64,000 bases of DNA, from contig JADYYG010000038.1 of assembly GCA_020853755.1 (NCBI GenBank), positions 4,649 through 68,648 on the forward strand. The letters run 5' to 3'. The notes beneath the pieces were generated by a model, which worked only from the letters and a program-made list of their open reading frames with translations, was not told the DNA's origin and searched no databases. The translations under genes and the position numbers were made by a program. Positions 2,097 through 60,581 of this stretch are shown one piece after another (positions within the stretch are counted from its first letter, which is position 1; every line of letters begins with the position of its first letter). This DNA is from Dehalococcoidia bacterium (lineage in GTDB: Bacteria; Chloroflexota; Dehalococcoidia; Tepidiformales; Tepidiformaceae).

Positions 2097-3371
2097 CTAC
2101 AGCGCCTCGTCGCACTCCCGCTGGACGACTTCCTCGAACGTTTCCCGGCGGCTGATGAGCGAGGCGTGGCCATCCTCCCAGTACACCTGCGGCGCCCGGC
2201 CAAGGGAGACGTAGTTCGAGGACATGGCGGCGCCGTAGGCCCCGGCGTCGTGCAGCACCACGAGGTCGCCCGGTTCCGGCCGCGGGAGGTCGCGCGGTTC
2301 GAGCAGTTCGTGCTCGTCCCGCGTGAAGACGTCGCCGCTTTCGCAGAGCGGCCCGGCGACCACGAACGGTTCGCGGGCCCGGCCTGCGCCTTCGCCCACG
2401 ATGGAGATGTGGTGGTACGAGCCGTACATCGCCGGGCGGACGAGGTCGTTGAAACCGGCGTCGGTCATGATGAACTGGTGGCCCGGGCCCTTCTCGTTCG
2501 TGCGGGTGGCCTTCACATCCTTGACCCGGCCGACGAGCAGGGCCATGCCCGCGACGGGGTAGCGCCCCGGCTCGATTTCGACCCGGACCTGGCGGCCCGC
2601 CGCCTCGGAGAGCGCGCGCTGGGCTTCGACGAGGATGACCTGGTAATTCGGCAGGTTGTACTCGCGGGCGCCCGGCCGGTAGGCGTGGGGGATGCCGCCG
2701 CCGAGGTTCACGCTCGTCGCTTCGGGGTACGAAGAGAGCAGGCCCTCGAACACCTCGGCGAGGTGCTTCATGTTGCGGTCGAACTCCTCGATTTGCGGGC
2801 CGGTGCCGACGTGGGCGTGGAGAGCGACCACCGTCATCCCGGCGTCGCGGGCGAGGTTGCCGGCCTCGGCGTGGTCTTCGTACCAGATGCCGTGCTTCGA
2901 AGAAGGACCGCCGGTGTCGCAGGCCTGGACGTGGCCGTGCCCGAACCCGGGGTTGATGCGAAGGGCGACCGGCCCGCCGTAGCCGGCCTCGGCGAGTTCG
3001 CGGATCATCCCCGGTGAGCCGATGTTCGGCAGGACGTTGTTCTCGATGACCGCGGCGAGGGCGTTATCGCGAAAGACGTCAGCCGTGTACATGACGACCG
3101 GCGGTTCGTTGCCCATGGCAAAGCCCGCCCGCTTCGCCCGGAGGATCTCGTTGCCGGAGACGGCGTCGATCCACATGCCGTGCTCGCGGGCGGCTTCGAG
3201 GACTTTGCGGGCGGAGTTGGCCTTGACGGCGAAGCGGCACTGGAGGCCGCGCGGCTCGGTGAGCGATGCCAGTTCAGCGAACTTCTGGCGGAGGATGTTG
3301 CCGTCGTAGAAGAAGAACGGAGTGCCAACCTTCGCGGCGATCTCCATGAGCGGGTACTGGGTCAGGTCCAT
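2097..3371 (-). CDS. lysA: PLP-dependent Orn/DAP/Arg-family decarboxylase, most likely diaminopimelate decarboxylase
   Basis: The track ORF 2097..3737 has an implausible Arg/Ser-rich N-terminus. The ATG at 3371 (MDLTQYPL..) gives 424 aa with FAVKAN (PLP-Lys), HAHVGTG, GGGIP, EPGRY and CESGD motifs. Confidence 0.8.
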   Translation of the reverse strand: MDLTQYPLMEIAAKVGTPFFFYDGNILRQKFAELASLTEPRGLQCRFAVKANSARKVLEAAREHGMWIDAVSGNEILRAKRAGFAMGNEPPVVMYTADVFRDNALAAVIENNVLPNIGSPGMIRELAEAGYGGPVALRINPGFGHGHVQACDTGGPSSKHGIWYEDHAEAGNLARDAGMTVVALHAHVGTGPQIEEFDRNMKHLAEVFEGLLSSYPEATSVNLGGGIPHAYRPGAREYNLPNYQVILVEAQRALSEAAGRQVRVEIEPGRYPVAGMALLVGRVKDVKATRTNEKGPGHQFIMTDAGFNDLVRPAMYGSYHHISIVGEGAGRAREPFVVAGPLCESGDVFTRDEHELLEPRDLPRPEPGDLVVLHDAGAYGAAMSSNYVSLGRAPQVYWEDGHASLISRRETFEEVVQRECDEAL

Positions 3372-3441
3372 CCGGACAGGGTAAGACACGGGGGCATGGA
3401 GGACACCCGGCTGCGCGGCCCGGTGTCCTCCGCCCCCGCCA

Positions 3442-4296
3442 TTAGCGCACCGTGATCGCGGCGTTCGAGATGACCGGCGTCCCGCGCTCCTTCGACTTCG
3501 ATTCCACGAGGATGGTCTTCCCGTCCCGCCAGTAGGAGGTCGCCATCGTCTCGCCCGGGAAGAACACGCCGGCGAAGCGCGCCTGGTAGCGGGCCACCTG
3601 CGCCGTGTCGCCGCCGAGTGCCTTATCGACGACCGCCTTGCAGACGATGCCGAACGAGCAGAGGCCGTGAAGGATCGGGAGGTCGAAGCCGCCCATCTTC
3701 GCGAACGCCGGGTCGGCATGGAGCGGGTTCTTGTCACCGCTGAGGCGGTAGAGCAGCGCCTGCTGGGGGATGGTCGCTGATTCGACCACGTTGTCCGGGC
3801 CGCGATCGGGCGCGGCGTTGCCGGCTGCCGGGCCGCTCTCGCCGCCGAAGCCGCCTTCGCCGCGGAGGAAGAGGGAGAAGCGGTTGACGAACAGCGGGTC
3901 GCTTTCGCCCTTGATCCTGGTCTCGGTTTCGACGACGACGAGGGCGGCCTTGCCCTTGTCGTAGATGCCAGCGACCTGGCCCTCGGTCTCGACCTCCGCC
4001 TCGACCGGGATGGCCTTGCGGATTTCGAGGTCCTGCTCGCCGTGGAGCAGCATCATCGGGTTGAACGACATGCCGGGGACGGCGCCGAGGCCGCCCATGG
4101 AGGCGAAGGCCGGGATGACGCCGAAGCTCGGCAGGACCTTGAGGTCCTTCTCGTAGGTGTAGGCGAGCTCGTTCGCGTCAGTCTGGGGGACGCCGGCGCC
4201 GACGCCGAGGTGGTAGAGGATGACCTTGTCGCGGTTCCAGCTGGCTGCGCCGCCGGAGATTTTCGCGCCGAGCGCTTTTGCGGGATCGATGGGCAC
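3442..4296 (-). CDS. MaoC-like (R)-specific enoyl-CoA hydratase, double hot-dog
   Basis: 284 aa. The C-terminal half carries the hydratase-2 motif YRLSGDKNPLHADPAFA. The N-terminal half looks like a degenerate hot-dog. Confidence 0.8.
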   Translation of the reverse strand: MPIDPAKALGAKISGGAASWNRDKVILYHLGVGAGVPQTDANELAYTYEKDLKVLPSFGVIPAFASMGGLGAVPGMSFNPMMLLHGEQDLEIRKAIPVEAEVETEGQVAGIYDKGKAALVVVETETRIKGESDPLFVNRFSLFLRGEGGFGGESGPAAGNAAPDRGPDNVVESATIPQQALLYRLSGDKNPLHADPAFAKMGGFDLPILHGLCSFGIVCKAVVDKALGGDTAQVARYQARFAGVFFPGETMATSYWRDGKTILVESKSKERGTPVISNAAITVR

Positions 4297-9219: not shown

Positions 9220-10239
9220 CTACCAGCGGGCCTCGTGCTCCTCGATCCAGCCGAAGAGGTCGCGCACTCTGATGACCTCGCCGCTGTCCGGCACGATGGT
9301 CCCGCGGTAGACGCCGAACATCTGGTGGACTTCGGTGAACCAGGCCTCGCGGCGCCCGCTCGTGCCGTGACGGTCATACTCCGGCTCGAAGACGAGGTCG
9401 ATCCGGTCTGATTCGGAGGTGCGCACGGTCCACGGCTTCATCCAGTCCGTGCGGTCGTAGTCGAGGACGAGGTCCTCGCTGATTTTCGAAAGTTTCCCGT
9501 CGATGCAGAGGCCGTTTTCGTTCATGCCGGTGCCCGTGGTCCACTTATCGCCGAGGTTGAAGCCGACCAGCCGGCCATCCTGCACGCCCGAGGCCGCGCC
9601 CCAGTTCCAGACCGTGTGCAGTGGCCACACGCCGCGGCCGTAGTCGAGGCAGCCGAACGCGCCCTCGCCGAGTTCGTACCGCGTATCACCCAGCTGGATG
9701 TACCCGGTCGCGGGGAGCGTGTTCTGCTTCGAGGTGAACTGCATCGAGAGGTCGTTCCAGGGGATGACGACGTTGAGGGTTTCGTGGCCCTCCGGGCGGC
9801 GGACATGGATATCGGCTTCGAGCGGGTAGCCCTGGAAGTCCGCCGCCCAAACCTGCAGCCGTGTGCCGGCCCCTTCGTCCGTGTGCGAAACGCGCATGTC
9901 CGGGTGCTCGATCACCATGTCGCCGTGGACATACTCCGGGATGGCGATGGTCCCGGGCGGGCGCGTCACGGTCTTGTCCAGGTGGAGTTTCGTACCCCGG
10001 TGGAAGAAGTACGCACCGCCGAGTTGCAGCCGCTCCATGTCGGCGATGGTGGTGGAAAAGAGAAGGTCGTTGTTCGTGACCGCCCAGTAGTTCCACTTCT
10101 TCGGGCGTTCGAGCGAAGGCGCGAGGTTGCAGCGGTGCAGCGGGTGGCGCGACCAGCCGACGGCGGCGCGGTTGAAGCGCCCGTCCGGGCCGCAGAGGTC
10201 GACGGGCGAAGTCAGTTCGGGTTCGTGGTAACGGGTCAC
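9220..10239 (-). CDS. DUF2804-family protein
   Basis: Body matches my recollection of DUF2804 proteins (..PVDLCGPDGRFNRAAVGWSRHPLHRCNL.. WNWGAASG..). I chose the GTG at 10239 (VTRYHEPELTSPVDLC). The longer 412-aa form would overlap the neighbouring SDR start. Start is uncertain. Confidence 0.7.
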   Translation of the reverse strand: MTRYHEPELTSPVDLCGPDGRFNRAAVGWSRHPLHRCNLAPSLERPKKWNYWAVTNNDLLFSTTIADMERLQLGGAYFFHRGTKLHLDKTVTRPPGTIAIPEYVHGDMVIEHPDMRVSHTDEGAGTRLQVWAADFQGYPLEADIHVRRPEGHETLNVVIPWNDLSMQFTSKQNTLPATGYIQLGDTRYELGEGAFGCLDYGRGVWPLHTVWNWGAASGVQDGRLVGFNLGDKWTTGTGMNENGLCIDGKLSKISEDLVLDYDRTDWMKPWTVRTSESDRIDLVFEPEYDRHGTSGRREAWFTEVHQMFGVYRGTIVPDSGEVIRVRDLFGWIEEHEARW

Positions 10240-10354
10240 GGAGGGGAAGGCTACCGTGCGCGCCGGTTCGCTGCTACGGGCCGGGCGAACACCGGGAACG
10301 CGGCCGCCCGGTAGAATCACGAGCGCATCACACCCACTGGAGAAGGAAACACCC

Positions 10355-11125
10355 ATGTCACTTTCAGGACGCGTCGCGCTTGTCACCGGCGGAGGCCGCG
10401 GCATCGGCAAGGCCATCTCGCTCGCCCTCGCTGCCGACGGTGCAACCGTCGCAGTCAACTACCGCCGCGACGAAGAGGCCGCCGCCCAGACCGTCGCCGA
10501 GATCCGGAACGCGGGCGGCACGGCGAAAGCCTACGCGGCCTCGGTCGAAGACTGGGGCCAGGATGAAGCGATGGTCGATGCGGTCATCAAGGACTTCGGC
10601 CACATCGACATCCTTATTAATAACGCTGGCATCGCCTCGCGCGGCCAGGGCGTCGCCGACACCGACCCGGCGGAGATGGAGCGCGTGGTGCGCACCCACG
10701 CCTTCGGCCCGCACTACCTTTCGAAGCTGGTCCTCCCGAACATGCGCCAGCAGGGGCGCGGCGACATCATCATGATTTCCAGCGTTGCAGCCCGCGGCCT
10801 TGGCCCGAACGGCGCCCCCTACAACATGGGCAAGGCCGCGATGGAAGCCCTCGCCATGACCCTCTTCAAGGAAGAGCGCCGCCACGGGATCCGCGTGAAC
10901 GTCGTCCGCCCGGGGCTGACCGAAACCGAGATGGGGAGTCGCCTGGCGCGCGCCACCCAGGGCATCCAGAGCATGCGCGACATCGACGCCCGCTCGCCGT
11001 TCGGCCGCGTCGCCCAGCCGGAAGACGTCGCCAAGGTCGTCGCCTTCCTCGTCAGCGACAACGCCTTCTACCTCACGGGCCAGACGATCGAAGTGGACGG
11101 GGGCGCCAACCAGGCGCTCCTGTGA
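10355..11125 (+). CDS. SDR-family oxidoreductase (FabG-like)
   Basis: ATG at 10355 after GGAGAAGGA. It has TGGGRGIG, NNAG and YxxxK (YNMGK) motifs. The stop codon TGA runs into repeat array R1. Confidence 0.9.
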   Translation: MSLSGRVALVTGGGRGIGKAISLALAADGATVAVNYRRDEEAAAQTVAEIRNAGGTAKAYAASVEDWGQDEAMVDAVIKDFGHIDILINNAGIASRGQGVADTDPAEMERVVRTHAFGPHYLSKLVLPNMRQQGRGDIIMISSVAARGLGPNGAPYNMGKAAMEALAMTLFKEERRHGIRVNVVRPGLTETEMGSRLARATQGIQSMRDIDARSPFGRVAQPEDVAKVVAFLVSDNAFYLTGQTIEVDGGANQALL

Positions 11126-11165
11126 TTTTGGATTGCGGATTTCGGATTTCGGATTTTGGATTGAG
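11124..11165. repeat. heptamer array R1: gattttg gattgcg gatttcg gatttcg gattttg gattgag (6 x 7 bp)
   Basis: Direct reading. The array starts inside the SDR stop codon. Confidence 0.9.
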
Positions 11166-11185
11166 CAACGCAGTGAACTGGCTTG

Positions 11186-11542
11186 ATGGATGAGGCAGCG
11201 TTCAAAGAGCGAACGCGCCAGCTTGGGCTGGCGGTGATCGCGCTGTCTCGTTCCATCCGGCACGACCTGGCTGCTGATGTCATCATCCGGCAGGTGGTTC
11301 GCTCCTCAACCTCAGTGGGGGCGAACTATCGTGCGGCCTGCCGGGCGAAGTCCCTGAAAGACATGGTTGCGAAGCTCGCGGTCGTCGAAGAGGAAGCCGA
11401 CGAGACGGTCCACTGGCTTGAAATGCTGCGTGACTCAGCCTCTGTCCCAGCGGATGTAGTGGCGCCGCTCATCCAGGAGGCCAGCGAAATCGTCGCAATG
11501 ACCGTCGCCTCCATTCGCACCCTCCGCCGCAGACTCAGCTGA
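11186..11542 (+). CDS. four-helix-bundle protein (23S rRNA intervening-sequence protein / Avd-like family)
   Basis: 118 aa. The motif pattern RQVVRSSTSVGANYRAACRAKSLKDMVAKL..EEADETVHWLEML is characteristic of this family. Confidence 0.85.
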   Translation: MDEAAFKERTRQLGLAVIALSRSIRHDLAADVIIRQVVRSSTSVGANYRAACRAKSLKDMVAKLAVVEEEADETVHWLEMLRDSASVPADVVAPLIQEASEIVAMTVASIRTLRRRLS

Positions 11543-11549
11543 ACTGGCT

Positions 11550-11582
11550 CAATGCAAAATCCAAAATCAAGAATCCAAAATC
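11550..11582. repeat. heptamer array R2 (reverse orientation: gattttg gattctt gattttg gattttg cattg)
   Basis: Direct reading, 8 nt after the four-helix-bundle stop. Confidence 0.9.
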
Positions 11583-11585
11583 CCT

Positions 11586-11651
11586 GAGGCCAGCGAAATC
11601 GTCGCAATGACCGTCGCCTCCATTCGCACCCTCCGCCGCAGACTCAGCTGA
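11586..11651 (+). repeat. exact 66-bp duplicate of the four-helix-bundle gene 3' end (copy of 11477..11542, including the stop codon)
   Basis: Both copies read gaggccagcgaaatcgtcgcaatgaccgtcgcctccattcgcaccctccgccgcagactcagctga. The offset is 109 bp. Confidence 0.9.
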
Positions 11652-11660
11652 GGCGCCAGA

Positions 11661-11694
11661 CCAATCCAAAATCCAAAATCACGAATCCAAAATC
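11661..11694. repeat. heptamer array R3 (reverse orientation: gattttg gattcgt gattttg gattttg gattgg)
   Basis: Direct reading. It overlaps the last 16 nt of the aldolase-family CDS. Confidence 0.9.
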
Positions 11695-12236
11695 CTCCCC
11701 CTGATGGCCGCAATCTCCGCGCTCTCCTCGAGCGCGGTAATCCAGTGGAGGGCTTCCCAGAGGGTTTGGCCGCGGGCGTAGGCGCCGTGTCCCTGGAGGA
11801 TGACGGCCAGGCGGGTTTGGAGCGCGGCGGCCACCTGCGCTACCTGGTTCGGGCCCTGGGCGATGACCGGCACGTCTTCGAGGAAGTGCTTCCGTTCGAA
11901 GTCGGGCGGAACGAACCGGTCCGTTTCGAAGGTGAGGGCGACCGCGTGGCGTGGGTGGGCGTGGACCACCGCGTTCGCGCCGCCAAGCGCGTAGATAGCA
12001 GTGTGCAGCGCCGTGTCGCTCGAAGGCGGCGGGCCTTCGTAGCCGCCGTCCGGGCGAACCAGCGAGATGTGCCGTTCGCGCAGCCGCCCGAGCATCGTGC
12101 CCGTGCCGGTAATCCACATCTCGTGCCCCGAGCGCACCGAAAGGTTGCCCCCATGCGATGAGACCAGCCCGAGCTGGTAGAGGTCCTTGCCGACTTCGGC
12201 AAACGTGCCCATGAGCTCGGGCGGGACAACGGTCAT
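11679..12236 (-). CDS. class II aldolase/adducin-family protein
   Basis: The ATG at 12236 (MTVVPPELMGTFAEVGKDLY..) gives 185 aa with SSHGGNLS and HAHP metal-binding motifs. The last residues (..GRILDS*) are encoded by array R3. Confidence 0.8.
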   Translation of the reverse strand: MTVVPPELMGTFAEVGKDLYQLGLVSSHGGNLSVRSGHEMWITGTGTMLGRLRERHISLVRPDGGYEGPPPSSDTALHTAIYALGGANAVVHAHPRHAVALTFETDRFVPPDFERKHFLEDVPVIAQGPNQVAQVAAALQTRLAVILQGHGAYARGQTLWEALHWITALEESAEIAAIRGRILDS

Positions 12237-12283
12237 GCGGGCGCCTCCGGGGGTGTTTGGCCCAGGCAATGGTAACCCGAGGG

Positions 12284-12318
12284 GATTTTGGAATGTGGAT
12301 TTCGGATCGTGGATTGGA
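12284..12318. repeat. heptamer array R4: gattttg gaatgtg gatttcg gatcgtg gattgga
   Basis: Direct reading, in the aldolase upstream region. Confidence 0.85.
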
Positions 12319-12465
12319 GGTGCTGCAGCCGAGAGGTTGACAGGTTTTGGCAGTGAGTACGGTGAGGGCGTCCGCCACGCCGGGTGGCGTGACCAACTTC
12401 TGGCACTCCGCGTGTGACGCCGGAGGCCCGTGTTCGAGCGCCGTGACAGAGAGGAGCGATTACCC

Positions 12466-13215
12466 ATGAACAAGCGTGTTCTCTGGAGCGCCCTCGGCGC
12501 TGTCATTCTCGCAGTCGTGGCAGTTGCCGCCGGTGGATTGGTGTTCGGCGGAGGAGATTCGTCGACACCGGTATCGGCGGACGGCCCTGGTCCGCTTTCG
12601 ACCGCGGTCGCGCCGGGCAAAGGCCCAGCGCCGGGCGCGGCAGCAACAACAGTGAACGTCACGGTCGGTCCGTACACGATCCCGCCCGCCCAGCTCACCG
12701 GATGGCTTGCCGTCGCGAGCGAGCGCGAGCGCCCGTTGCTCGAAGATGGCGTCCTCACGTTCGCTGAGTACCAGTCGGCGGTGCTCGATGCCGTGGCCTG
12801 TATCGAACGCGGCGGCGTGAAGGTCGTCCACTTCCCGGGCTACGGCCGCGGCGGGGTTGGCGAACCCGGTCCGCGACTTTCGAGCCGGGGTGTGTACAGC
12901 TATGCTGGCTCGGTGCAGGGTTCGTCCGGGAGTGTCCCGGCGGACGCCGCCCGTGTCGTGGCCGACTGCAAAGCAGGGTCGGCCCAGGTGGAGTTCATCT
13001 GGGCGCAGCACACCGCGCCGAGCGAAGTGGAGCTGCAGGCGATGCGCGACGCCATGGCGGTCTGCCTGCGCGAGGCCGGCGCAAGCGTGCCGGAGGCGCA
13101 CCCGTCAGATGTGCAATTGAAGGCGGCAAAGCAGCACGGCGCTTCGGACCAGGCCTACTGGACGTGCCAGTTCGCAGCTGCAGACGCGTTCGAAATCGAC
13201 CGCCTGCCCGGCTAA
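12466..13215 (+). CDS. membrane-anchored hypothetical protein
   Basis: ATG at 12466 after GAGGAG. It begins MNKRVLWSALGAVILAVVAVAAGGLVF (TM anchor) and has a Cys-containing ectodomain. I recognise no family. Confidence 0.65.
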   Translation: MNKRVLWSALGAVILAVVAVAAGGLVFGGGDSSTPVSADGPGPLSTAVAPGKGPAPGAAATTVNVTVGPYTIPPAQLTGWLAVASERERPLLEDGVLTFAEYQSAVLDAVACIERGGVKVVHFPGYGRGGVGEPGPRLSSRGVYSYAGSVQGSSGSVPADAARVVADCKAGSAQVEFIWAQHTAPSEVELQAMRDAMAVCLREAGASVPEAHPSDVQLKAAKQHGASDQAYWTCQFAAADAFEIDRLPG

Positions 13216-13230
13216 ACCCGCGCCCGCCCC

Positions 13231-13264
13231 CTCAATCCGAAATCCGAAATCCGCAATCCAGATC
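13231..13264. repeat. heptamer array R5 (reverse orientation: gatctg gattgcg gatttcg gatttcg gattgag)
   Basis: Direct reading, 16 nt after the stop of 12466..13215. Confidence 0.9.
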
Positions 13265-13445
13265 GTCTACCCTGTTCGCGTGGATGTCGTCTCGTGGGCG
13301 GTCCCATTCGCGCTCGAGCCCGAGGATGGCCAGCCAAGCCGCTGGAACACCCTTCGTGCGCTGCGGGTTCTCGCCTGGTGGGACGGCTCGCCGGGCTGAT
13401 ACTCCTCGCGCAACAGCCCTGCCCGGCTAAACCCGCGCCAGCCCA

Positions 13446-13487
13446 CTCAATCCCCAATCCCCAATCCAAAATCCGCAATCCCCGATC
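13446..13487. repeat. heptamer array R6 (reverse orientation: gatcggg gattgcg gattttg gattggg gattggg gattgag; 6 x 7 bp)
   Basis: Direct reading. It ends 1 nt before the stop codon of the convergent SDR gene and is inverted relative to R1. Confidence 0.9.
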
Positions 13488-13488
13488 G

Positions 13489-14310
13489 TCACTTCAGCGT
13501 GATGCCGCCGTCCACTGCGATGGCCTGGCCGGTGATGTTCCACGCCGCCGGGCTGCTGAGGAACGCGGCCAGGTGGCCGATGTCCTCCGGCGTCTGTTCG
13601 CGGCGCAGGGGAACGCCGTTCTTCACCACCTCGAGGAAGATGTCGCGCGGGTCGCGGTCGGCGTACTGGGGGACGCGCATCTTCATGCCCGTGGCCAACC
13701 CCTCCCATGCGCGCGTCCAGAGGAAGCCCGGCATGATGGCGTTCACGCGGATGTTCGCCGGCGCGTATTCGAGCGCGGAGGTGCGCGAGAGCGAGATGAC
13801 GCCTGCCTTGGCCGCGGCGTAGGCAGGGAGCGTTGGCGAGGCGGTTATCCCGGCGATGCTGGCGATGTTCACGATCGAGCCGCCGCCGCGGGCCTTCAGG
13901 TAAGGCACTGCCACACTCGTCCCCAGGAACGTGCTGCGCAGGTTCTGGGCCAGCTGCTCGTCCCACATTTCGGCCGACATGCCTTCGACGTTCGCCGCGC
14001 GGGTCGAGGGCGTAATCGCCGGGTCCAGTGGGCCGCGGCCGGCGCCGGCGTTGTTGACCATGATGTCGAGGCCGCCGAACGCGTCGGTGACCTGCTTCAC
14101 CGCCGCCTGCAACGCGCCATCGACGATGACGTCGCAGGCGAGGCCCATGCCCGGGACGGCCAGCGCCGCCGCGGTCTGGGCGGCCGTTTCGCCGTCGAGG
14201 TCGAGGATGGCGACCTTCGCGCCCTGTTCGGCCATGACCTTCGCGATGCCCGCGCCAATCCCGCGCGCGCCGCCGGTGACGATCGCCACCTTTCCATCAA
14301 GCTGTCCCAT
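13489..14310 (-). CDS. SDR-family oxidoreductase
   Basis: ATG at 14310 after GGGGAG (MGQLDGKVAIVTGGARGIG). It has NNAG and YAAAK motifs. The N-terminal 79 aa of the track ORF are implausible. Confidence 0.9.
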   Translation of the reverse strand: MGQLDGKVAIVTGGARGIGAGIAKVMAEQGAKVAILDLDGETAAQTAAALAVPGMGLACDVIVDGALQAAVKQVTDAFGGLDIMVNNAGAGRGPLDPAITPSTRAANVEGMSAEMWDEQLAQNLRSTFLGTSVAVPYLKARGGGSIVNIASIAGITASPTLPAYAAAKAGVISLSRTSALEYAPANIRVNAIMPGFLWTRAWEGLATGMKMRVPQYADRDPRDIFLEVVKNGVPLRREQTPEDIGHLAAFLSSPAAWNITGQAIAVDGGITLK

Positions 14311-14348
14311 GGTGTTGCTCCCCTTTCTGGTTCGAAGTTGGGCGACTG

Positions 14349-15197
14349 CTACTCGCCGATGAAGCGCGGTTCGCGCTTTTCCACGAAGGCGCGGACGGCC
14401 TCGCGGCTGTCGGTGCTCATCCCGCTGATGCGCATGTTGATCGCCTCCTGGTCGAGCACTTCCTGGAGGGTCCCGGTCTCGCTGAGGTTGAGGTTCGCCT
14501 TCATCCGGCCGTAGGTGGCCGTCGGCCCGGCGGCGATCTTCGCGCAAAACGCCATCCCCTCGGTCATCAGGTCATCGTGGGGGACGACGAGGTTCGCGAT
14601 GCCGAGCGCGAGCGCCTTCTGGGCGTCGATGATCTCGGCAGTCAGGTAGAGCTCGCGCGCTTTGCCCGCACCGACGATGCGCGGGAGGAAGTACGAGCCG
14701 CCGAAGTCGCCGCTCAGGCCCACGTTGCGGAAGGCGGTGCCGAAGCGCGCCCGGTCGCTGCAGACGCGGACATCGCAGGCCAGCGCGAGGCTGAACCCGG
14801 CGCCCACGGCCACGCCGTTGACGAGCGCGATCGTCGGCTTCGGCGTCGTGTGGAGGCGCAGCGAGGTGATGTCGTGCACGGCGCGCAGTTCGGCCGTCGT
14901 GCGTTCGAGAGTGGACATGGCGCGGGTCACCGGGTTCGCCTCCGGGTCGGCCGCCGCGGCTGACTGGCTGTCGTTGCGGGACTGCATCCCGCGGACGTCG
15001 CCGCCGGCGCAGAACCCGCGGCCAGCCCCGGTGAGGACGATGGCGCGAACCGCGCGGTCGCGTTCGGCGTCCTGGAGGGCGTCGGCCAGCATCGGCAGGA
15101 GGTGGCCGCCCATCGCGTTCAGGCTGTCGGGCCGGTTGAGGGTGATGAGCGCGACACCGTCGCTGCGCTTCTCGTAGAGGACATCCTGGTCAGACAT
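14349..15197 (-). CDS. enoyl-CoA hydratase/isomerase (crotonase) family
   Basis: The ATG at 15197 begins MSDQDVLYEKRSDGVALITLNRPDSLNAM. It has the oxyanion-hole segment GAGRGFCAGGD. Confidence 0.9.
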   Translation of the reverse strand: MSDQDVLYEKRSDGVALITLNRPDSLNAMGGHLLPMLADALQDAERDRAVRAIVLTGAGRGFCAGGDVRGMQSRNDSQSAAAADPEANPVTRAMSTLERTTAELRAVHDITSLRLHTTPKPTIALVNGVAVGAGFSLALACDVRVCSDRARFGTAFRNVGLSGDFGGSYFLPRIVGAGKARELYLTAEIIDAQKALALGIANLVVPHDDLMTEGMAFCAKIAAGPTATYGRMKANLNLSETGTLQEVLDQEAINMRISGMSTDSREAVRAFVEKREPRFIGE

Positions 15198-60553: not shown

Positions 60554-60581
60554 AACCTCAAACCTCAAACCTCAAACCTCT
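60554..60581. repeat. heptamer array aacctca x3 + aacctct
   Basis: Direct reading. It lies in the 76-nt spacer between 58466..60535 and 60612..60824, embedded in C/A-rich sequence. Confidence 0.85.

Follow-up and report, generated by a model that had tools for sequence, protein, structure and literature searches.

Inverted heptamer arrays as the probable ends of a small four-helix-bundle gene cassette in a Dehalococcoidia bacterium

Introduction

To what do the short tandem repeats belong that fill the intergenic spaces of a 2.4-kb segment in the genome of a Dehalococcoidia bacterium? The segment (11124-13487) lies in a stretch of 64,000 nucleotides (assembly GCA_020853755.1, contig JADYYG010000038.1, positions 4,649 to 68,648 of the forward strand; hereafter the window, numbered from its first letter), between two convergent genes for short-chain dehydrogenases/reductases (SDR), and its repeats are units of seven nucleotides, GATTNNG, which form six arrays, R1 to R6. 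Among the genes between the arrays there is one for a small four-helix-bundle (4HB) protein of the family PF05635, named after the intervening sequences (IVS) of 23S rRNA, and it may be asked whether the arrays are parts of an element to which this gene belongs or independent repeats beside it. A preliminary description of the same DNA had seen here one 2.4-kb insert composed of cassettes, either bounded by terminal inverted repeats (TIR) or integron-like, and had not recognized the repeat as a described element.

Heptamer repeats have been known in cyanobacteria since 1990, and were later found to be over-represented in many bacteria, Xanthomonas and Geobacter among them. The '23S rRNA IVS protein' family is likewise abundant in many phyla and has solved structures, and it was read as cas-associated simply from operon position. 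The analysis presented here leads us to propose, with a probability of about 0.7, that a family of transposase-less cassettes of about 450 bp has these arrays as its terminal inverted repeats, cassettes whose cargo is one PF05635 4HB gene and whose architecture is that of the IVS; the cassette is apparently selfish.

Results

Six heptamer arrays and one probable cassette

The arrays were recognized by reading the letters of 10200-14500, by Tandem Repeats Finder and by a pattern search. A pattern of three GATTNNG units with up to 2 mismatches has 19 matches in the 64-kb window, every one of them in 11124-13487, while 100 dinucleotide-preserving shuffles gave 0.06 and none of them (0/100) reached 19. 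All six arrays of the preliminary description were found in their places; they are listed here together with the 4HB gene.

11124-11165, + strand: R1, the proposed left end of the 4HB cassette, with 6 units (GATTTTG, GATTGCG, GATTTCG, GATTTCG, GATTTTG, GATTGAG)
11186-11542, + strand: 4HB gene, 118 aa, type A (MDEAAFK...), PF05635 / TIGR02436
11548-11583, - strand: R2, the proposed right end of the cassette, in inverted orientation, with 5 units, two of them imperfect
11660-11695, - strand: R3, 5 units
12284-12318, + strand: R4, 5 units, degenerate, 46 nt upstream of the start of a class II aldolase gene and 147 nt upstream of the gene of a hypothetical protein
13231-13259, - strand: R5, 4 units, 27/27 complementary to R1 (inverted pair)
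13446-13487, - strand: R6, 6 units

The stretch from R1 to R2 (11124-11583) measures 460 bp and consists of two inverted arrays of about 35 nt with the PF05635 open reading frame (ORF) inside. The encoded protein reaches 49.8 bits with PF05635 (cut-off 33.8) and 70.1 bits with TIGR02436 (cut-off 24); the gene has a GC content of 0.62 and a GC3 of 0.73, against a host median GC3 of 0.85. The arrays adjoin the coding sequences very closely: the TGA stop codon of the left SDR gene (11123-11125) contains the start of R1, the stop codon of the right SDR gene (13489-13491) begins one base past the end of R6 at 13487, and R1 and R6 have the second unit GATTGCG and the inner unit GATTGAG in common, all of which the sequence confirms as it had been described. 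Guanines stand singly or as GG in R1-R5, and two GGGG runs occur only in R6. On the proposed reading, R1, the 4HB gene and R2 would be one intact cassette, which sits exactly between the SDR stop codon and the former operon partner of the SDR gene, the aldolase gene.

The same site in related contigs

By the names of its homologues the left SDR gene belongs in Dehalococcoidia, close to Tepidiformaceae. It has orthologues of 84-99% identity in 18 Dehalococcoidia contigs (L120-L137), which were scanned for arrays; L218, a 97%-identical relative, was joined to the comparison afterwards. A 4HB gene follows the SDR gene in L120-122 (type A), L123, L124/125, L129-133, L130 and L137. In these contigs an array of 3 to 5 units, mostly 5, stands between the SDR stop codon and the gene, and an inverted array of about 35 nt is found directly 3' of the gene wherever the contig reaches far enough (L120 and L122 end within the gene). 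The R1 homologue has 5 units in L120-122, L218 and L129-133, and the number differs by strain, being 6 in the window and 5 in L121 and L218. The six contigs without the 4HB gene (L126-128 and L134-136) have zero arrays; in L134-136 the aldolase gene begins 20 nt after the SDR gene on the same strand, and in L126-128 the gap is 136 nt.

Since the arrays and the 4HB gene are present or absent together among the 18 contigs, they constitute one unit. The interval behind the SDR gene is thus variable among relatives, a check that the preliminary description had asked for, and its supposition that the 4HB gene came as a small insertion agrees with a cassette that is present in some and absent in six of the 18 contigs behind an orthologous gene. 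The older arrangement is the SDR-aldolase adjacency. The claim of one 2.4-kb insert had to be given up, because the aldolase is the ancestral partner of the SDR gene, 20 nt away, on the same strand and array-free in L134-136. Comparison of the filled sites of L137 and L129 with the empty sites of L134 and L126 shows no target-site duplication.

Two local peculiarities were noted at this site. In L123 the array after the type B gene at the contig end (1491-1518) is on the + strand where - was expected; a second element may begin there, or the assembly may have broken within the repeat. The 136-nt spacer between SDR and aldolase in the array-free L126 (6778-6913) contains two other hairpins, ctctcccagatctgggagag and cccctctccc..gggagagggg, which may belong to a different small repeat family.

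Different cassettes behind identical genes

Polymorphism of the site concerns not only the presence but also the kind of the cassette. L129 and L130 encode identical SDR proteins and have about 97% DNA identity outside the cassette, with a visibly divergent 4HB gene inside; the identity breaks off within the left array, at its last unit, and returns at the final bases of the right one, so the breakpoints lie in the arrays. The genes are of type A (MDEAAFK) in the window, L121, L218 and L129 (frameshifted there) and of type B (MDERERDF) in L123, L124, L130 and L137, and the two types alternate after identical SDR proteins in two separate lineages. Either recombination within the arrays has swapped the cassettes, or insertion at this site has happened several times; the arrays are the boundaries either way. 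That the arrays bound a mobile or exchangeable unit, as had been suggested, is supported by these comparisons.

Arrays beside 4HB genes in metagenomes, plasmids and many phyla

In order to see how general the arrangement is, 80 metagenome loci with relatives of the window 4HB protein (44-61% identity, GC 34-68%) were inspected. The strict GATTNNG motif gave both arrays in 25 loci and one array in 23, and 25 seemingly negative loci carried inverted heptamer arrays with variant units (GATTTAC, GATTTTC, GATTCAC, GAATGCG). The strict motif had thus missed about a third of the flanking arrays, and the loci were therefore re-scanned with a GATT-core criterion. Of the 72 loci that could be evaluated, 56 are flanked on both sides by arrays in the canonical orientation, 14 on one side only, and 2 lack arrays. 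The association within this subfamily is accordingly nearly universal, and it is local: the density of arrays is 5.2 per kb up to 200 nt from the 4HB gene and 0.19 per kb elsewhere on the same contigs, a 27-fold difference. The arrays beside these genes mostly have 4 to 5 units, within the tight range of 3 to 6, and 54 further cassettes are 402-665 bp long, with a median of about 455. The two arms of a cassette agree at 59-62% of the variable positions, in comparison with 38 +/- 2.4% for shuffled partners. The arrays have a polarity, the outward-facing order GATT...> <...AATC being dominant; in the window lineage GATTTTG is the outer unit and GATTGNN the inner one.

The same layout was seen in five loci of IMG/VR, and it is kept on plasmids of named organisms, such as that of Gloeocapsa PCC 7428 with (GATTTTA)n. 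Distant 4HB subfamilies have other motifs, (GTCGGAG)n on pNPUN01 of Nostoc punctiforme and (CGGAGAG)n in Treponema saccharophilum, and keep the 7-nt period, so that of period and sequence it is the period which is better conserved.

The cassettes are also oriented with respect to their surroundings. In the metagenome loci, as estimated roughly from the longest ORFs, the gene upstream points the same way as the 4HB gene in a ratio of 51:7 and the gene downstream in a ratio of 35:11, and the cassettes are often found within operons, in seven loci between ABC-transporter genes. On two plasmids, L219 (Gloeocapsa PCC 7428) and L223 (Ca. Chlorohelix), which belong to different phyla, the cassette has DUF1156 and Swt1-family HEPN genes as its neighbours, and a published case has a 4HB gene between cmr3 and cmr2 (PMC3936711).

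Some observations on single loci can be added. Seven metagenome contigs with a cassette (L140, L141, L147, L150, L151, L170, L171) differ in GC and seemingly share the same site, where the upstream gene ends with ..DECCPP and the downstream gene, ZnuB-like by eye, starts with MSFLLEPLQYEFMQRG; this would point either to an insertion of old date or to a hot spot. In L228/L229 (IMG/VR) the genes around the cassette look BREX-like from a reading of the flanks. On pNPUN01 (L221) the 4HB gene with its (GTCGGAG)n arrays adjoins tnsA, xisH, xisI and a tyrosine recombinase gene.

The search was also made in the other direction, with a four-unit pattern and one genome per species. The 119 array loci reported here are the matches listed, and more exist. 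They come from Planctomycetota, Cyanobacteria (Nostoc, Dolichospermum, Tychonema), Chloroflexota, Acidobacteriota, Gemmatimonadota, Bacteroidota, Verrucomicrobiota, Xanthomonadales (Xanthomonas, Lysobacter, Rhodanobacter) and others. According to an iterated 4HB profile just 3 of these 119 listed loci have a 4HB gene, and all-against-all clustering of the ORFs near them gave no recurrent neighbour family. The array scan with tabulated flanks that had been recommended for this repeat thus has a double outcome: at least one array flanks the 4HB gene in 70 of the 72 evaluable loci, whereas the gene is found at 3 of the 119 listed array loci. The assumption of a 4HB gene at each array was therefore abandoned. 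Adjacent arrays in the listed loci stand in the order GATT...> <...AATC (+/-) in 33 cases and in the opposite order (-/+) in 6, and 27 of the 33 +/- pairs have a spacer of 2-139 nt, that is, they are hairpins without a gene. Arrays were seen at both ends of an ordinary L9-like gene in L087.

Rearrangements around R2 to R6

The other features of the segment and its borders are the following.

10355-11125, + strand: left SDR gene, 256 aa, Pfam adh_short/adh_short_C2; orthologues have 258 aa and a stop codon of their own
11580-11695, + strand: tandem duplication of 109 bp, comprising a second copy of the 72-nt 3' end of the 4HB gene (11580-11651) and R3, with the junction at an ATCC microhomology
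11679-12236, - strand: class II aldolase gene, 185 aa, Pfam Aldolase_II, stop codon 11679-11681
12466-13215, + strand: gene of a hypothetical membrane-anchored protein, 249 aa, between R4 and R5
13280-13399, + strand: in-frame remnant (39 codons) of a gene for 314 aa, found by BLAST of L218 against the window
13489-14310, - strand: right SDR gene, 273 aa, Pfam adh_short_C2

The gene identities proposed earlier hold, namely PF05635/TIGR02436, Aldolase_II, two adh_short genes and one protein without a family, the 249-aa protein having no match in Pfam, NCBIfam or PADLOC. Both host genes which abut an array, SDR and aldolase, have changed C-termini, with a stop codon or tail encoded by the array. 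The left SDR protein is shortened to ..ALL*, in place of ..ALPNL or ..ALPNR in relatives, by a TGA formed at the R1 junction. The stop codon and the last 4 to 5 codons of the aldolase gene lie inside R3, in keeping with the earlier description, and its tail reads ..AIRGRILDS*, while relatives have ..WLRAAMK or ..WLRSATRS*; about the last six residues were replaced by the array-encoded ..GRILDS.

R3 has its origin in a duplication. The 3'-terminal 72 nt of the 4HB gene occur twice (11471-11542 and 11580-11651, 97% identical), which the preliminary description does not mention, and in L218 and L121, which are without the 109-bp duplication, only one array separates the 4HB gene from the aldolase gene. 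Because L218 has one array there, R2/R3 represent a recent, strain-specific duplication of 109 bp. The R4 homologue is kept in L218 and has further decayed in L121.

A second gene lies, or lay, between R5 and R6. About 28 nt that precede R5 recur from 13418, just before R6, with 86% identity, again a repeat absent from the preliminary description, and L218 has the same layout; R5 and R6, each preceded by these approximately 28 nt, are therefore direct repeats around the 314-aa gene or its remnant. The gene is intact in L218 (4414-5358) between the R5 and R6 homologues, and the intact protein has no Pfam match on record. In the window it has lost about 823 bp by an internal deletion, L218 4401-4431 corresponding to 13267-13297 and L218 from 5255 onward to 13296 onward. 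Homologues of the hypothetical 249-aa protein (67% and 55% identity) stand in other contexts in relatives, without arrays; the one in L224 follows a PSP1-domain gene and precedes a thiolase gene, and L224 belongs to a metagenome-assembled genome with no cassette behind the SDR gene.

In the window, L121, L124 and L218 the aldolase gene reads from the - strand; it is found on the + strand directly after the SDR gene in L126-128 and L134-137. With the SDR-aldolase adjacency as the ancestral state it is therefore an inverted resident gene and not cargo; in the window lineage it lies between the opposed arrays R3 and R4. On this comparison R3 to R6 seem to record rearrangements associated with arrays: a duplication, an inverted aldolase gene, a relocated gene (R4/R5) and a second gene between direct repeats (R5/R6). 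Altogether the arrays coincide with four kinds of local rearrangement, namely C-terminal truncations (SDR, aldolase), inversion, duplication and gene relocation.

Additionally, SDR, aldolase and an Orn/DAP/Arg decarboxylase gene form one co-directional string in L134-136 (L134 6001-8675), and the decarboxylase gene of the window is found at 2100-4052 on the - strand, about 7 kb upstream and on the other strand; since it is displaced with respect to L134-136, the old operon is scrambled in the window. Another heptamer array, (AACCTCA)x3.9 or (TGAGGTT)n on the other strand, was seen at 60554-60580 in an intergenic spacer. The gene before this spacer has its end at about 60536, the ATG that follows is at about 60613 in the same orientation, and no 4HB gene is nearby.

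Protein model, predicted RNA and searches for known signals

The AlphaFold model of the 4HB protein has a pLDDT of 96.3 and helices at residues 4-24, 29-53, 58-84 and 90-118. Its closest structures are 2rld (BT_0352), 2gsc (Xcc0516) and the Avd structures 4dwl/8ub7, each deposited with five chains (A-E); the TM-score is 0.82 to 2rld and 2gsc and 0.75 to 4dwl. Xcc0516 is a toroidal homopentamer (PMC4990558), and the window protein, judged by these relatives, may be homopentameric as well. For the RNA of 11110-11600, the minimum free energy structure and the centroid structure alike predict that R1 is paired with R2 (z = -3.26).

Neither integrase nor transposase nor reverse transcriptase was found among the ORFs scanned in 1-24.8 kb of the window or in the gene lists of close relatives, in agreement with the earlier remark that there is no recombinase nearby. 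The scan revealed no promoter-like site and no terminator-like signal above shuffle expectation, and no Rfam family, rRNA included, is found in the window or in 20 related cassette loci. PADLOC assigned the 4HB protein to no defence family, and exact-protein look-ups of the window proteins gave no record.

Three known kinds of locus were considered and rejected. A CRISPR-like array does not agree with units that are contiguous and have no spacers. A diversity-generating retroelement (DGR) was discarded since there is no reverse transcriptase among the neighbours and no pair of template and variable repeats, the long direct repeats being two local duplications only. A G-quadruplex (G4) at this locus was dismissed because the required tracts (at least four of at least three G) are absent.

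Discussion

Relation to described elements

The locus is classed here as an IVS-type 4HB cassette with heptamer-array ends, situated outside rRNA. The IVS of 23S rRNA in Leptospira, Coxiella burnetii and Brucella is like this cassette in having a PF05635 ORF (S23p) as the sole ORF and no mobility gene. ORF-bearing IVS measure about 0.4-0.75 kb, a range into which the 460 bp from R1 to R2 fall. That of Coxiella has 428-444 nt, a terminal stem of 28 bp, which RNase III cuts, and the S23p ORF (PMC4990558); these dimensions are to be compared with a median of about 455 bp and arms of about 35 nt for the cassettes here. Both are sporadically distributed and have a GC content below that of the host. 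However, the rRNA IVS is located inside a 23S helix (helix 9, 25 or 45), whereas the cassette of the window stands between protein-coding genes. Its ends are phased GATTNNN heptamers; the Coxiella paper gives no sequence for the ends of its IVS (PMC4990558). Cleavage by RNase III was demonstrated for the rRNA IVS only, and the stem here is a predicted one.

STRR1 of Calothrix and Anabaena (CCCCAAT/CCCCAGT; Mazel et al. 1990) is a repeat of the kind seen here, read in another register. A (GATTGGG)n array is identical with the (GGGGATT)n of Nostoc in another register, reading (CCCCAAT)n on the other strand, and the GGGAATC repeats of Xanthomonas are of the same GGGNATC type, although not identical. 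Rehm et al. 2015 described GGGAATC in Xanthomonas and GGGGA(C/T)T in Nostoc as intergenic repeats near ORF ends with a preference for about four units, of which 70-75 convergent inverted pairs occur per Xanthomonas genome; most are transcribed and they form G4 in vitro, they are called 'generally not associated with mobile elements', with a function that 'remains to be elucidated' (PMC4692102). A repeat of this type was therefore already published, although the preliminary description had not recognized it. The taxa of the Rehm and STRR1 type are those of our pattern scan, Nostoc, Dolichospermum, Xanthomonas, Lysobacter and others. In that work the repeats are treated as simple sequence repeats (SSRs) with G4 potential, without a link to 4HB genes of the Xcc0516 type, while in the arrays studied here GATT is kept and the G-run is not.

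The class 3 sites of Geobacter metallireducens consist of five tandem heptanucleotides in opposite-strand pairs and were taken for putative global-regulator sites (PMC2700814). They resemble the arrays here in the five heptamers, in the inverted pairs at variable distance and in their location between operon genes (proB/proA, moaA/mosC) (PMC2700814), and they differ in the consensus MTYCTGA (GAAT/GAGT core on the other strand), in being read as IHF/HU-type sites and in forming gene-less pairs about 100 bp apart. MITEs (small transposable elements with inverted repeats) and TIR transposons are comparable in their short TIR-bounded form, the presence/absence polymorphism and the many gene-less beside the fewer gene-bearing copies; unlike them, the cassette has no recognisable transposase or visible target-site duplication, and it ends in repeats which are themselves periodic. 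Avd, which assists DGRs as an accessory protein, has the same fold and belongs to a pentameric family, 8ub7 being Avd in an RNA-protein complex with reverse transcriptase; however, its identity to the window protein is about 13-14%, and neither a reverse transcriptase nor a template/variable repeat pair was found in 1-24.8 kb of the window. Integrons have attC sites, one orientation of cassettes and a platform of intI, attI and Pc; here the arrays are tandem heptamers in both orientations, and no tyrosine recombinase was found in 1-24.8 kb of the window or among the neighbours in relatives. We found no paper in open-access full text which links heptamer arrays with PF05635 genes or prints these arrays; the link is probably, although not certainly, undescribed. 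What would be new is this link between arrays and 4HB genes, while the type of repeat and the IVS architecture were known.

Evaluation of the cassette and of other explanations

Several points weigh against the proposed cassette. The analysis revealed neither a mobility enzyme nor a target-site duplication nor an excision footprint, therefore strict transposition is not demonstrated; a transposase acting in trans from elsewhere is conceivable. The arrays form stems with a complementarity of about 80%, which are thus imperfect. The 80 metagenome loci were picked by similarity to the window 4HB protein and include some near-duplicates, and in the opposite direction the count of 3 in 119 listed loci means that most arrays are gene-less and may have an independent role. 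Within the window the genes between R4 and R5 and between R5 and R6 are not 4HB genes, and in L124 the aldolase gene is inverted without an array on its 5' side, therefore inversion by means of arrays can just be considered possible. Cleavage by RNase III would be an extrapolation from the rRNA IVS, and a relation between the pentamer and the number of units amounts at this stage to numerology.

The explanation that has to be compared most closely with the cassette is that arrays are autonomous intergenic elements, such as structure-forming SSRs, G4 or hairpin regulators, terminator-like signals or global-regulator sites, and that 4HB genes home between inverted pairs of them, much as the IVS occupy loops of rRNA hairpins. 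The rarity of the gene among listed arrays, the 27 of 33 listed +/- pairs which are gene-less hairpins with spacers of 2-139 nt, and the arrays at both ends of ordinary genes such as the L9-like gene speak for it, and both earlier publications are in its favour, since the repeats of Rehm et al. lie near ORF ends, are mostly transcribed and form G4 in vitro (PMC4692102) and the paired fivefold heptanucleotides of Geobacter were read as global-regulator sites (PMC2700814). Against this stands the behaviour of the SDR site, where the empty sites of L126-128 and L134-136 are array-free and arrays and gene arrive or leave together; homing into pre-existing pairs is weakened there because the empty sites have no arrays, and keeps some room in general. 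Furthermore GATT and not a G-run is conserved, units such as GATTTTG, GATTTCG, GATTTAC and GATTTTC contain no G4 tracts, and terminator-like signals do not exceed shuffles. We therefore regard autonomous arrays as improbable, although by no means negligible.

Much less probable is an integron-like or other site-specific cassette system with a dedicated recombinase elsewhere, in which the aldolase, hypothetical and 314-aa genes would be captured cassettes. Its appeal comes from the array in each intergenic space of 11124-13487, from the regular succession of a + strand gene and a (-) array (4HB-R2, hypothetical-R5, 314 aa-R6), from the 28 nt preceding R5 that are repeated with R6, and from the hypothetical gene standing elsewhere in relatives without arrays. 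Yet the aldolase is an ancestral SDR neighbour and was not captured, the ends are tandem heptamers in both orientations and not attC-like imperfect palindromes, the enzymes are missing from the scanned ORFs and gene lists, and the 80 loci carry, practically without exception, one and the same small gene as cargo. From the pair of terms used at first, the TIR-bounded form is thus retained, with inverted array pairs around one gene, and the integron-like one, with no attC and no integrase among the ORFs scanned, is not. That the arrays are microsatellites generated by slippage and placed by coincidence has hardly any credit left: unit numbers do differ among strains (6 in R1 of the window, 5 in L121 and L218) and heptamer SSRs are over-represented in bacteria (PMC4692102), but the enrichment and orientation statistics contradict it, with 19 matches against 0.06 expected and all confined to 2.4 kb, the 27-fold enrichment beside 4HB genes, unit numbers tightly between 3 and 6, a fixed inverted orientation with polarity, and a core common to many phyla.

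A possible mechanism

For the proposed cassette the following course of events can be imagined. The 4HB gene would fairly probably be expressed by read-through from the host gene. The two arrays may then pair in the transcript to an imperfect stem of about 35 bp and, by analogy with the 23S IVS, serve as a substrate of RNase III, a step which we consider somewhat doubtful. Spread and turnover could be achieved by recombination at the arrays, with chances that are evenly balanced, and the many gene-less array pairs would be MITE-like derivatives.

The GATT cores are phased at 7 nt and kept on both arms regardless of pairing. A phased multimer-binding site is probable because a plain stem would need neither the 7-nt period nor GATT on both arms across phyla, and the encoded toroidal pentamer is the candidate binder because it is the only protein which always travels with the arrays, and these have 4 to 5 units. 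As a whole, the step in which the cores would be sites of a multimer, with this pentamer as the best candidate, is tentative and rather unlikely to be correct in full. A still bolder extension is more speculative again: the PF05635 pentamer might be the sequence-specific end-binder, and possibly the mobiliser, of an unrecognised class of transposase-less mobile elements with phased heptamer ends, and the gene-less arrays its MITE-like derivatives, among which the cyanobacterial STRR, the 'G4' repeats of Xanthomonas and Nostoc and the 'global regulator sites' of Geobacter would have to be counted.

Significance

For the window itself, the arrays would explain the instability of the segment, that is the truncated C-termini of SDR and aldolase, the inversion, the duplication and the gene relocation. 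In general, if one selfish cassette really has the heptamer arrays as its ends and the 4HB gene as its cargo, two puzzles of long standing would merge into a single question open to testing. Annotation pipelines could recognise the element, and 4HB genes in defence or metabolic operons would be insertions and not components of these systems; the cassettes in defence operons (L219, L223, L228/L229) are examples which could be mistaken for defence components. The arrays would additionally be a defined ligand for testing the binding of the pentamer. Should the pentamer also prove to be a mobiliser, this would explain both the excess of heptamers in bacterial genomes and the origin of the ORF-bearing 23S IVS. 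The cassette may also explain why heptamer repeats of this kind are common in bacteria.

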